From the IMG/VR virus record IMGVR_UViG_3300020577_010320: a stretch of 64,000 nt of DNA. One strand, 5' to 3'. The DNA comes from a virus. The translations under genes were made by a program, and so were the position numbers. This document shows, piece by piece, positions 41,729 through 46,153 of this stretch (position 1 is the first letter of the stretch; each line of letters opens with the position of its first letter). The notes under the pieces are model-generated. The model saw nothing but the letters and a program-made list of their open reading frames with translations. It ran no database searches and was not told the origin of the DNA.

Positions 41729-42487
41729 TCACGCGACCGGCGTCTCCTCCGGCAGGTACGGCACCAGCGCGCCGACCTTGATCGCGTGGTGCACGTCCTC
41801 GAACGGGCGGTCCATGCCTCGGATCTGCTGGGCGAACTTGCTGACGACCACGGACGCGGCGTACGTGGCCATGTACACCGTCAGCTTCTCCGTACACCGG
41901 CCGGCCATCTGCTCCGCCTGGGCGAACAGAGTGGCGCGGTACCGGGCGATCGACTCCGGGGTCAGCTTGAAGGTGATGACCCTGGCGTCCTCGCCCAGCA
42001 CCCGGCAGTCGCCGAACCAGGTCGCCTCGTTGGCGACGGCCTGGTCGAAGATCAGCCGGCGGGCGTCCATGTTATCGACGCACGAAAACACGTACGCCCC
42101 CTGCGTCGCCGCCCCTTGGGCCCGGTCGAAGTGGTGGGGCCACACCCGGTACTCGACGTCCGGGTTCATCCGCTGGCAGTCGGCGGCGGTGACGTCGACC
42201 TTCTTGCGGCCGATGTCGTTCGGCCCGTACATCTGGACGCCGAAGTTCACCTCCTCCACGTCGTCGCGGTCGAACACCGTGACGGTCGCCGGCCCGAGCG
42301 ACGCCAGCTGCAGCATGACTTGCCGGCCCACCGCCCCGCACCCGACCACCGTGCACGCGGTCCGCTGCAAGACCGCGTACGGCGCCAGGCCGTCCTGGCG
42401 GGCGTGCCGCCGGGGGTAGTTGCCCCCGACCCCGTCGTCCGCGACCGGGGCCTGCACCTTGGACTTCGTCTTCGTCTTCGTCGCCAT
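41729..42487 (-). CDS. E1-like (ThiF/MoeB family) ubiquitin-like activating enzyme
   Basis: Rossmann VVGCGAVGRQVMLQLASLG, FDRDDVEEVNFGVQMY, downstream conserved Cys; 252 aa. Confidence 0.7.
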   Translation of the reverse strand: MATKTKTKSKVQAPVADDGVGGNYPRRHARQDGLAPYAVLQRTACTVVGCGAVGRQVMLQLASLGPATVTVFDRDDVEEVNFGVQMYGPNDIGRKKVDVTAADCQRMNPDVEYRVWPHHFDRAQGAATQGAYVFSCVDNMDARRLIFDQAVANEATWFGDCRVLGEDARVITFKLTPESIARYRATLFAQAEQMAGRCTEKLTVYMATYAASVVVSKFAQQIRGMDRPFEDVHHAIKVGALVPYLPEETPVA

Positions 42488-42502
42488 TCGTAGCCTCCGG
42501 GG

Positions 42503-44047
42503 TTAGTCGTCGCTCTCGGGCATCTCGATCCCCTGCGTCTCGCAGTAGTCCTGCAGGTACATCTTGAACGACCGGTCTGAGGGGGTGGTGATCTCCTCTG
42601 CCGTCGCCCCGTACGTCTTCCGGATGTACCGCCGGAAGTCCTGCTCCGTCTCCTCGTCCCAGCCCGGGACCAGGGGCTTGGACGTCCCGCCCCGCGGCGT
42701 CACGTCGCACACGTTGCACACCCGACACGCCGTCATCGTCTCCGGCGGGCACAGCTGGTCGCAGGCCACGCACTTGACATGGTCCGAGACGTCCGGGGTG
42801 GACGGCTGGAGGTTCATCGGCTCGGCCGGCGGCATCAGCTGCTCGACGTCCACGTCCTGCGGCGTCTGACTCGCCGGCAGGTCGTCGTCCGTCACCAGCG
42901 CGACGCCGGTCTGGTGATTGACCGACTTAACCACCCCAGTGCAGAACCGGTCGCCGTCGATCCACACGACGGGGTCGCCGGTCTGCGGCCAGAGCTGGAC
43001 GTCGTCGTCTTCCGACAGCCCGAGGTACGGCTGCGTCTGGAGGTCCTGGCAGTCCGAGCACACAATCCCGGCGGGGGTGTTCGCCGGGTTGACGCAGAAC
43101 GCACACGTCGTCAGCGTGCCGTCCTCGACCGCCTCCTTGCGCTTCTGCCGGCGGCGCTTCTTGTCGCGCTTGCGCTCCGCCCGGTAGTCGTACCAGCTGT
43201 CGTAGACGCTGGCGAATTCCGGGCCGAACTGAGACCCATCCCGCACCACCTCCCGAGCCTTGGCGGGCAGGTACCCCTGCCACGCCGCGAACCCGGTTGA
43301 CGGGGAGTGCTTGACCTTCTCCGCGTACTCCGCCGCCCACCCGGTTGTCAGGGCCGGAAGTTGCGGCAGGAGCTCCGGCAGCCGGGCCCAGTCTACCCGG
43401 ACCGTCGACGGCGTACGCTGCCGGCTGTCGACGTCCGTCGGCGACTTCGTCCGGCAGTACGTCTCACCCCCGCGGGCCAGGATGAGCATGGCGTAGAAGT
43501 CCTGCGGGCCGGTCCACACGTCCTTGAACGTCGTCTCGTCGATCGACGACGGCTGGGCCGATGAGCCGGGGTGGGTGTGCAGCCACACGCGTCCTACCTG
43601 GCCCTCCACGTACTTCCCCGTCATCGTCTGCATCAGCAGGTCGAGCAGCTCGTCGTCGTCGGACTCGCAGTACGCCGGCGTGCAGCTCTGCTTGGGGATG
43701 TGCAGACTCTCGACGTAGGTGGGTACGTTCGGCTTGGAGACCCCGAACGCACACGCCTCCGTCTTGCCGGCGTGACAGATGAACTGCCAGTGGAGGAACG
43801 CCAGCGGGGACAGGGTGATGACCTTGGACGTCGACGTAGCCGCCACCATCGGCGTCGTCTCGACGCCGATGTGGTCCCACCCACGGCCCCAGTTGTTGCC
43901 CCAGTCGTACCGGGACTTCAGGATGACCGGCTGGCGCACGGGCGGGGTCGGGGACAACGGGATCGGCAGGACCGGCTTCGGCCCCGTCGGCACGTCCGCC
44001 CCGTTCCCGTAGGAGATCACCCGCGCGTTTTCGTTGATGATGGCCAT
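42503..44047 (-). CDS. JAB/MPN (JAMM) metalloprotease with C-terminal Cys-rich zinc-ribbon region
   Basis: JAMM motif LHTHPGSSAQPSSID (HxHx7Sx2D) with upstream Glu; C-terminal CAFCV..CSDC and CVACDQLC..CRVCNVC clusters. Confidence 0.7.
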   Translation of the reverse strand: MAIINENARVISYGNGADVPTGPKPVLPIPLSPTPPVRQPVILKSRYDWGNNWGRGWDHIGVETTPMVAATSTSKVITLSPLAFLHWQFICHAGKTEACAFGVSKPNVPTYVESLHIPKQSCTPAYCESDDDELLDLLMQTMTGKYVEGQVGRVWLHTHPGSSAQPSSIDETTFKDVWTGPQDFYAMLILARGGETYCRTKSPTDVDSRQRTPSTVRVDWARLPELLPQLPALTTGWAAEYAEKVKHSPSTGFAAWQGYLPAKAREVVRDGSQFGPEFASVYDSWYDYRAERKRDKKRRRQKRKEAVEDGTLTTCAFCVNPANTPAGIVCSDCQDLQTQPYLGLSEDDDVQLWPQTGDPVVWIDGDRFCTGVVKSVNHQTGVALVTDDDLPASQTPQDVDVEQLMPPAEPMNLQPSTPDVSDHVKCVACDQLCPPETMTACRVCNVCDVTPRGGTSKPLVPGWDEETEQDFRRYIRKTYGATAEEITTPSDRSFKMYLQDYCETQGIEMPESDD

Positions 44048-45733: not shown

Positions 45734-45808
45734 AGACTAAAAGACAACGCACCGGGTAGGTGCGTTGTCCAGTGCGTCCTAGATGAACGGGGCTAGGACG
45801 CGGCCGGG

Positions 45809-46153
45809 TCAGGCCGCGGCGAGGAAATCGGCCAGCTGGGCGAAGTCGCGCAGGTCCTGGTCGTCGCCGCCGCCGACCTTCTTCGGCGTGAACATCACGC
45901 GGTCGCCGTCCTGCACGATCTCGCTCGCGGTCGGGCGGAACGTGTTGTCGCCCCGCAGCACGCCGATCGAGTAGTTGCTGGCCTGGGCGCCGGGGAACAG
46001 GAACCCGAACAGGATGCTGTACGTGGTGCCGGCCGGGATCTGCTTGTCCTGGGCGAAGCCCACGTCGTCCGTCTTCGTGACCTTGATGTTGACGTACTCG
46101 TTCGCCATCGTCGTCTTCTCCGTATGGACCTGTTCGAACACACTGCGTACCAC
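45809..46153 (-). CDS. ubiquitin-like beta-grasp protein (ThiS/MoaD-like) with C-terminal extension after GGG
   Basis: ...VNIKVTKTDD...VQDGDRVMFTPKKVGGG|DDQDLRDFAQLADFLAAA*; first gene of Ubl-E2-JAB-E1 operon. Confidence 0.6.
   Translation of the reverse strand: MVRSVFEQVHTEKTTMANEYVNIKVTKTDDVGFAQDKQIPAGTTYSILFGFLFPGAQASNYSIGVLRGDNTFRPTASEIVQDGDRVMFTPKKVGGGDDQDLRDFAQLADFLAAA

Follow-up and report, generated by a model that had tools for sequence, protein, structure and literature searches.

Bacterial pathways that combine a ubiquitin-like protein (Ubl), an activating enzyme (E1), a conjugating enzyme (E2) and a deubiquitinase have so far been studied either as host defences, as with the cyclic-oligonucleotide-based antiphage signalling systems (CBASS) and Bil, or as orphans (Bub). 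Bil, an ISG15-like system of bacteria (Hör et al.; Chambers et al.), defends against phages by tagging a phage tail protein. Its E1 (BilD) combines an inactive and an active adenylation domain with a mobile Cys domain and also has a structural zinc (PMC10557695). Bub works through Tyr/Ser oxyesters: its E1 and E2 carry no catalytic cysteines, its JAB peptidase is fused to the E1, and it includes a serine protease, BubE/DUF6527 (PMC11601596). JAB peptidases process the Ubl precursors in both systems (PMC10557695, PMC11601596). Operons with ubiquitin, E1, E2, a RING E3 and Rpn11 are known from Caldiarchaeum, Asgard archaea and some bacteria (PMC5654768), and a review citing Burroughs et al. 2011 counts Planctomycetes among the carriers of related operons (PMC4197634). 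Phages lambda and T1 have a tail-assembly pair made of TAPI, a Ubl, and TAPK, a JAB plus NlpC/P60 protein (Iyer, Burroughs & Aravind 2006, PMC1779556). Here we describe a cassette of four genes, at positions 41729–46153 of a 64,000-nucleotide stretch of viral DNA (IMG/VR record IMGVR_UViG_3300020577_010320; this whole stretch is called the window). The genes encode a Ubl, an E2, a JAMM-type peptidase (JAB) and an E1. We consider it likely that together they form a self-contained, thioester-based Ubl conjugation cascade; this grading covers the conjugation cascade, not its biological direction. We did not find a phage-encoded full Ubl–E1–E2 cascade described in the literature, that on crAss phages included. 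If our reading is true, this is, as far as we found, the first one described.

The cassette consists of four successive open reading frames (ORFs) on the minus strand, in the order Ubl–E2–JAB–E1 (45809–46153, 44126–45733, 42503–44047 and 41729–42487), as stated in the original prediction that was made from the letters of the window. The intergenic gaps are 75, 78 and 15 nucleotides. The third-position GC (GC3) of the four ORFs is 0.85–0.97, which is normal for real genes of the window. The motifs quoted for the E2 (HPHVMTLGQCCLG), the JAB (HTHPGSSAQPSSID) and the Ubl (PKKVGGG followed by DDQDLRDFAQLADFLAAA) were all located at exact coordinates. The stretch belongs to a virus: its gene content is of phage type, mostly with PHROG matches.

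The cassette is recurrent. Scanning IMG/VR with the window E2 or E1 alone found nothing; an alignment of JAB sequences was used as the probe and recovered 31 viral loci, on contigs of 10–208 kb. The order E2–JAB–E1 is present in all 31, and a Ubl was detected in 29. One of the two loci without a detected Ubl ends at the contig edge, and the other has two E2 genes. On metagenome contigs, JAB adjoins E2 in all six loci found, which comprise five members of the E2 family and one locus (L003) reached through its JAB homologue. Wherever the contig reaches far enough, these six carry a ThiF gene and a small Ubl as well; in L006 the Ubl comes after the E2. The same JAB probe, searched against one genome per species (GTDB), gave 159 confirmed loci, and architecture and taxonomy were taken from the best 80. 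Almost all of these 80 are from Planctomycetota, with a few from Victivallales and Verrucomicrobiota. The exact cassette, in order, is found in 55 of them. The other 25 are accounted for by 19 loci cut by contig ends, five with the cassette and, in addition, further copies or paralogues, and one (L123) without a separate JAB match. Gene order is fixed in more than 100 loci, and the cassette loci span 37–70% GC. The operons of Planctomycetes reported by Burroughs et al. 2011 may overlap this family, so that bacterial copies may already have been mentioned. The original prediction called such a gene set unusual in a viral or mobile context. It is instead a recurrent combination in viral contigs, and is abundant in Planctomycetota chromosomes.

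When the ORFs of the 38 viral and metagenome loci were clustered, only the four cassette families were common; the next commonest family occurred in 6 loci. No conserved fifth gene or encoded target was seen in these 38 loci. The family of small proteins adjacent to the cassette, proposed earlier as one possible source of targets, is therefore not favoured. The same clustering bears on the idea that the cassette regulates the virus's own virion morphogenesis, as proposed for lambda TAPI/TAPK, with the Ubl joined to or cut from virion proteins. The two systems are alike in pairing a JAB with a phage ThiS/MoaD-like Ubl that has a conserved C-terminal glycine and an extension. The presence of Ubl and JAB in phage tail-assembly clusters is established (PMC1779556), and many large unannotated proteins near the cassette in the window could be structural. 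However, the lambda pair lies in a tail module and has no E1 or E2, whereas the cassette encodes a full cascade without a link to structural genes: no structural or tail gene is conserved beside it in the 38 loci, and it is found too in small integrative elements that show no virion genes. We consider a morphogenetic role improbable.

The E2 gene (44126–45733, minus strand) encodes 535 amino acids from a TTG codon; in public gene calls the start is codon 9, a GTG, which gives 527 amino acids. The UBC-fold core is formed by residues 102–253 (44975–45430, minus strand). It contains the active-site motif HPHVMTLGQCCLG (45110–45148, minus strand), in which HPHVMTLGQCC represents residues 196–206, with a cysteine at the distance from the HP[NH] triad (about 7–10 residues after it) that is typical of UBC enzymes. 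The predicted catalytic residue is Cys206 (codon 45116–45118). H196, P197, C206 and G208 are invariant in 91 full-length members of the family, and HPN replaces HPH in 4 of 43 E2s. An exhaustive HMMER search with residues 1–262 gave 46 clusters. Of these, 44 share the pattern HPHV-x(3-5)-C-LG...TYNxxSPY..W..CxxCG, most with Cys-rich tails; the two exceptions are P0006, a repeat-protein false positive, and P0047. The AlphaFold model of the core (residues 102–271; 43-sequence alignment) has a predicted local distance difference test score (pLDDT) of 83.7 and a predicted template-modelling score (pTM) of 0.76. It shows the alpha/beta fold of UBC enzymes, with an N-terminal helix, an antiparallel sheet, the active-site loop and a crossover helix. 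When the family profile was compared with the PDB, 8 of the 10 weak matches were UBC enzymes, and the best alignment pairs HPHVstdgsiC of the profile with HPHVYSNGHIC of a solved UBC; the E-value of this comparison is weak (0.012). The fold, together with the invariance of H196, P197 and C206, bears out the earlier claim of a UBC-like HPH...C core.

Curated resources do not recognise this enzyme. The window E2 had no match in Pfam (E≤1), PADLOC, PHROGs, NCBIfam or the PDB sequences. The Pfam families Prok-E2_A to E gave no match for the window E2, for 44 core fragments or for the 91 members. The Pfam model UQ_con (PF00179) matched 7 of the 44 core fragments weakly (best 3.1e-5) and none of the 91 full-length E2s at E≤0.01, nor the window E2; its gathering threshold is 27 bits, and by this model the proteins fall outside the family. 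Judged by its sequence, the conjugating enzyme is a distinct E2 family that has gone unrecognised by curated databases. Several viral proteins of 420–590 amino acids in BFVD (A0A516KZW4, A0A516LAI7, A0A516LW79 and others) match the E2 core model with a Foldseek probability of 1.0. Members of the E2 family are thus already deposited in BFVD/UniProt as uncharacterised viral proteins.

The core is followed by a Cys-rich tail (E2 residues 254–460; 44354–44974, minus strand), which has about 30 conserved cysteines in CxxC pairs and is predicted to be a multi-zinc module. Thirty tail cysteines are shared with the 35%-identical E2 homologue in L003. Among the 91 E2s, C254, C257 and C282 are invariant, and C271, C274, C279, C313, C339, C343, C360 and C363 are nearly so. 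The family consensus of the tail is made of repeated CxxC-x(3-4)-CxxC units, and the tails differ in length among family members. The first cluster, C-x2-C-x13-C-x2-C-x4-C-x2-C-x9-C-x-C, has a spacing that resembles PHD or RING domains by eye only; RING, PHD, B-box and zinc-ribbon Pfam models found nothing at E≤0.01 in the 91 E2s. Compared with the eukaryotic E2s of UBE2W type and the E2/E3 hybrids UBE2O and BIRC6, the identity is 12–21% and the flanking domains are unrelated; in the cassette E2, repeats predicted to bind zinc take the place of the canonical C-terminal helices of UBC. The cassette lacks an E3 gene of its own, and the tail would serve as a built-in substrate adaptor or E3 substitute. 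The protein may be a minimal E2/E3 hybrid. Tandem E2 paralogues (2–3 per cassette), two Ubls or a second E1 are found in L014, L015, L019, L009, L039 and L043, which suggests that the conjugating step has diversified. Paralogous E2s with variable tails fit a diversifying recognition of targets, and this diversification could show how targets get chosen.

The Ubl precursor gene (45809–46108, minus strand) encodes 99 amino acids from the ATG at 46108, and the alternative GTG at 46153 would give 114. The ATG is the more likely start, since a GGAG lies about 10 nucleotides upstream and both the homologue starts and the Logan gene calls of 99 amino acids agree with it. The protein has a beta-grasp fold with a conserved C-terminal glycine. 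Its best sequence-profile matches are MoaD, ThiS and SAMP2, with a weak PDB E-value of 0.0012; in Pfam, members of the family weakly match ThiS, RnfH and TGS and not ubiquitin (PF00240). The glycine G80 (codon 45869–45871, minus strand) is the second G of GGG and one of three invariant columns in the family alignment. It is the predicted site of both conjugation and processing. The pattern P-x-K-[VI]-x-G-[AGSNE] is shared by 38 homologues, followed by a tail of 0–21 amino acids; the position after G80 is A, G, S, N or E. The tails of the window Ubl and of its 41%-identical relative in L003 are unusually long, at about 19–21 amino acids. In the AlphaFold 2 model, a low-confidence linker (80–83) is followed by a helix (87–98). 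The sequences look like those of a precursor whose C-terminus must be trimmed. The original prediction described a Ubl ending in KKVGGG with an 18-residue extension, DDQDLRDFAQLADFLAAA. Both parts are present; the invariant glycine, though, is the second of the three. With G80 invariant and the next position variable, processing may leave KKVGG and remove 19 residues. The C-terminal propeptide GDDQDLRDFAQLADFLAAA (G81–A99; 45812–45868, minus strand) is the part that JAB is predicted to remove.

The E2 and Ubl assignments could be artefacts of weak similarity, which would leave only the ThiF–JAB pair as real. Zero matches for either protein in curated libraries and the weak PDB E-values of both profiles speak in favour of this view. 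Against it, the invariant HPH...C and the C-terminal glycine are exactly the residues that the two folds need, and both genes are kept in fixed order across more than 100 loci of very different GC content. We give this explanation hardly any credence. The original prediction was to fall if the E2 and the Ubl failed profile or structure searches; these were run, and both proteins came through.

The JAMM/MPN+ metallopeptidase gene (42503–44047, minus strand) encodes 514 amino acids, with a long C-terminal extension. The MPN core lies at 43298–43825 (minus strand), with the catalytic Glu97 at 43757–43759 and the motif HTHPGSSAQPSSID (residues 157–170) at 43538–43579. The E...HxHx7Sx2D motif is complete, which places the protein in the JAMM/MPN+ group, and by its residues the predicted protease is catalytically complete. 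E97, H157, H159, S167 and D170 show no variation across 7 cassettes, and HxHx7[ST]x2D is intact in 35 of 37 JABs. The Pfam Prok-JAB match is weak (1.1e-3; 19.2 bits against a cutoff of 25), PADLOC JAB models also match, and the best PDB sequence matches are to AMSH/STAMBP. A 41%-identical homologue is present in the syntenic locus L003. The C-terminal extension of about 260 amino acids (residues 251–514; 42506–43297) contains four CxxC pairs and a stretch rich in Lys and Arg. Only the close relative L003 keeps it; most JABs of the family have 200–330 amino acids and lack it.

The E1 gene (41729–42487, minus strand) encodes a single-domain ThiF-type protein of 252 amino acids, without CxxC. Pfam ThiF matches residues 37–225 (E = 1.2e-26; 93.8 bits against a cutoff of 28.1), and the best PDB sequence matches are the active adenylation domain of Uba1, UBA5 and ThiF. 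The nucleotide-binding loop GCGAVG lies at 42326–42343 (minus strand), and its glycines G49, G51 and G54 do not vary among the 35 cassette E1s aligned. The same holds for R30, D73, K96, D138, R162 and C198. The predicted thioester cysteine is Cys198 (codon 41894–41896, minus strand), within the motif C-T-x-[KR]-x-T. The match to ThiF and the invariant adenylylation residues, with the GxGxxG loop, an Arg finger and a Mg-binding Asp, place the protein in the ThiF-type E1 superfamily, as had been proposed; like the JAB, it has its full set of catalytic residues.

The E1 is below every curated NCBIfam cutoff: the best match is TIGR02356 ThiF, with 66.3 bits against 275.25, and MoeB reaches 43 against 266. 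This bears on the view that the genes serve sulfur transfer, with ThiS/MoaD as the carrier and ThiF/MoeB as its activating enzyme, to make thiamine or molybdopterin or to thiolate tRNA; the JAB would then only mature the carrier. The nearest relatives of the Ubl profile are MoaD and ThiS, the best NCBIfam match of the E1 is ThiF, and annotators at IMG and GenBank label homologues 'ThiS' or 'thiamine biosynthesis protein'; current pipelines use these names or 'hypothetical'. However, the E1 falls below every sulfur-pathway equivalog. A UBC-fold E2 with invariant HPH and Cys is always present and has no part in sulfur transfer, and rhodanese, ThiG/ThiH, MoaE or other sulfur-pathway genes are not conserved neighbours. 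A sulfur-carrier function is highly improbable.

From what is known of the E1, E2 and JAMM families, we infer the following sequence of steps. The JAB would trim the 99-residue precursor at G80 (PKKVGG), taking off the tail of 18–19 residues. The E1, probably a homodimer, would adenylate G80 with ATP and then load the Ubl on Cys198. The Ubl would pass to Cys206 of the E2, in the HPH-x7-C site of the UBC fold. The E2 would then place it on target lysines without a separate E3, with the CxxC tail acting as a built-in, substrate-binding E3-like module. The JAB could also undo the modification. We know of no compatible host cascade in bacteria in general. A virus that tags proteins must therefore bring all four parts, and the strict four-gene unit fits this.

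The original prediction related the cassette to the 6E-type operons of Iyer, Burroughs and Aravind and to Bil. The gene set is indeed shared; membership of these families is not. Like Bil (BilABCD), the cassette has four genes for Ubl, E2, JAB/JAMM and E1, and a Ubl with a C-terminal glycine that is JAB-processed (predicted here). Thioester chemistry, with cysteines on the E1 and the E2, has been shown for Bil and is predicted for the cassette. In contrast to Bil, the cassette E1 has one ThiF domain (37–225) in 252 amino acids and no CxxC, and the E2 has an N-terminal extension and a poly-CxxC tail. The cassette also differs in occurring in viral genomes and in bacteria of the Planctomycetes–Verrucomicrobia–Chlamydiae (PVC) group. 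No Bil chain was among the PDB sequence matches of the four proteins. PADLOC 2.0.0 gave only generic JAB and Cap2-E1 matches, and the presence of Bil models in that release is unconfirmed.

The cassette is not Bub/6E, because C198 of the E1 and C206 of the E2 are invariant, there is no DUF6527 gene and the JAB is separate. Nor is it type II CBASS, because there is no E2–E1 fusion and no CD-NTase cyclase. Unlike CBASS Cap2/Cap3, the cassette has one gene for the E2 and another for the E1, with that of the JAB in between; the Ubl is dedicated and there is no effector. The PADLOC Cap2 match on the E1 is partial (4e-9) and covers the Rossmann part only, and no cyclase was seen among the cassette neighbours. 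With the Caldiarchaeum-type operons, the cassette has in common a canonical-style HP[HN]-x-Cys E2, a JAMM peptidase and a compact operon. It differs from them in having no separate RING gene, a ThiS/MoaD-like Ubl, an E2 below UQ_con and a minimal E1. Among solved sequences, the nearest are eukaryotic AMSH for the JAB, and the Uba1 adenylation domain and UBA5 for the E1. The cassette is best described as four partners, namely a distinct E2 family, a JAMM peptidase, an E1 of minimal size and a ThiS-like pro-Ubl, which move jointly in viruses and in the mobile elements of PVC bacteria.

The cassette moves as one piece between viral genomes that are otherwise unrelated and between integrative elements of Planctomycetota. 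The chromosome of Planctomicrobium sp. SH527 (NZ_CP195790.1; L091–L094) has at least four copies, with 92–96% nucleotide identity. In one of these (L091) an IS3 transposase precedes the cassette; after it come an ORF of 376 amino acids, an excisionase-like protein and a tyrosine integrase. This arrangement suggests that the copy is a small integrative element. Several Planctomycetota genomes have 2–4 copies. In other Planctomycetota loci, some of the neighbours are GHKL- and HerA-like ATPases, of kinds often seen in conflict systems. We read the cassette as an inter-genome conflict module. In the window virus it most likely tags proteins of the host or of rival elements, within the infected cell, to the virus's advantage.

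Two roles come into question within this reading. Host takeover or counter-defence, to which we give somewhat less than an even chance, is argued for by the position amid early and metabolic genes of large viral genomes, by the absence from defence hidden Markov model (HMM) libraries and by the multiple copies within a single genome. The other is a Bil-like antiphage or superinfection-exclusion cargo, which would tag the structural proteins of competitor phages and spoil their assembly. The Bil precedent, the linkage of some copies to an integrase and the GHKL- and HerA-like neighbours argue for defence or exclusion. The movement of the cassette as a unit between unrelated contexts, the excisionase, integrase and transposase genes that flank the SH527 copy, and the expansion of E2 paralogues agree with this. 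Against a Bil-like cargo stand the weak and generic PADLOC matches and an architecture unlike Bil, with its single-domain E1 and zinc-tailed E2. The viral contigs are also as large as 208 kb, with the cassette here amid genes for nucleotide metabolism and RNA polymerase, and the four copies of 92–96% identity on one chromosome resemble a multi-copy element more than a defence locus. The distribution found is confined to the PVC group and not sporadic across phyla; this is a weak point, because the probe was built from the same clade. We regard exclusion of competing phages as quite possible, at around a one-third share of our expectation, and other roles take the remainder.

Some observations weigh against a viral cascade that acts for the virus. 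The E2 and the Ubl are below threshold in every curated HMM library scanned. With no RING or other Pfam match in the zinc tail, its E3-like role is conjecture. The E1 Cys198 is what we take to be the equivalent of ThiF C184 and MoeB C187, by motif position only. Terminator-like sites, the hairpins flanking the operon among them, are not more frequent than in shuffled sequence. The Planctomycetota copies are chromosomal and lie, at least sometimes, in small integrase-bearing elements, a setting typical of defence cargo. A more specific version of our reading is that viruses of Planctomycetota and their relatives encode the full cascade and that the zinc tail of an E2/E3 hybrid picks the host or rival targets; we regard this as speculative and rather unlikely in that full form.

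In a subset of loci, the cassette is linked to an unfoldase-like gene and a partner gene. A single-ring AAA+ ATPase like Cdc48/VCP/VAT (PDB matches: VAT, 5e-42; p97, 5e-39) and a partner of 322 amino acids are encoded just upstream of the cassette (L090:3512–5005 and 5047–6006). This linkage is seen in about 19–21 of the 80 genome loci and in 1–3 of the 31 viral loci (also L036, L025 and L034). Neither gene is present within the window. If true, the linkage would suggest tag-and-unfold control of proteostasis outside eukaryotes and archaea. Planctomycetota have long been discussed for eukaryote-like traits, and their cassettes, with this occasional Cdc48-like linkage, offer an accessible example in which to study how ubiquitin signalling evolved. 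The chemistry so far studied in host defences or as orphans is probably packaged here as a portable four-gene module in viruses. The sequenced Planctomicrobium sp. SH527, with its four copies, offers an experimental handle, as does a distant candidate in cultured Xanthomonas jumbo phages.

That candidate is at 772–5527 of Xanthomonas phage PhiXhv-15 (PV764602.1, L013), where a possible distant cassette lies beside a ThiF protein of 227 amino acids. It includes a Cys-rich protein of 892 amino acids with RIHPHM...SLCLGS, which aligns with the E2 family at an hhalign probability of 63% (E 7e-5). A protein of 141 amino acids ending in KASGG was considered as its Ubl and was not confirmed by hhalign, and no JAMM motif was seen in this candidate cassette. 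Such possible distant versions are carried by cultured Xanthomonas and Erwinia jumbo phages, where the genes are annotated as hypothetical or 'thiamine biosynthesis protein'. Phage crAss001 (MH675552.1, L012) was also examined as a possible carrier of the cassette and rejected as a demonstrated homologue: gp78 aligns with the E2 at an hhalign probability of 0.8%, and the match of gp79 to the Ubl is unsupported. By eye, the N-terminus of gp79 has a Ubl-like stretch ending in APEKKIKSGA. The adjacent genes for gp76 (ThiF-like) and gp77 (a JAB with HSHx7..SGTD) are real, and the pair is also found in many crAss-like and Flavobacterium phages.

The window has a GC content of around 63% and is compact, with nearly all genes on the minus strand. 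When the region was compared by blastn with 50,697 phage records, no match was found, and tblastn with the window E2 gave none either. Near-identical contigs of 16–77 kb are present in several public assemblies, and with the E2 or the JAB as query, word-indexed protein searches found the same virus and one or two relatives only. A sigma-70 promoter scan of the region found nothing. The terminator scan gave a stem-loop with a T-tract between the Ubl and E2 genes (45742–45770, minus strand; 12-bp stem), a possible attenuator. It could attenuate read-through and thereby supply the Ubl in excess over the enzymes; given a site count not above that of shuffled sequence, the evidence for this is weak. 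A GC-rich hairpin with a T-rich tail (41691–41716, minus strand; 11-bp stem with 10 GC pairs) lies 13 nucleotides past the E1 stop and is likely, to go by its form, to be the end of the transcription unit.

Other genes of the window encode an RNA ligase, a dCTP deaminase, a phage-type exonuclease, a GP88-family protein and a Thg1-like tRNA-His guanylyltransferase, and most of these match PHROGs. About 4.5 kb downstream of the cassette, a gene at 35804–37276 (minus strand) encodes a protein of 490 amino acids with a papain-family C1 cysteine-protease domain (Pfam 2.1e-53); such proteases are uncommon in bacterial viruses. A multisubunit RNA polymerase is both split and fused, which is unusual for a virus. 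A fusion of 1457 amino acids (59037–63410, minus strand) joins the beta subunit (Rpb2 domain 6) to the N-terminal part of beta' (Rpb1 domains 1–2), and a separate protein of 627 amino acids (55257–57140, minus strand) is the C-terminal part of beta' with Rpb1 domain 5. The Thg1-like gene (19611–20501, minus strand; phrog_4717, 8e-75) and the RNA ligase gene (30314–31501) suggest a viral set for tRNA repair or maintenance.

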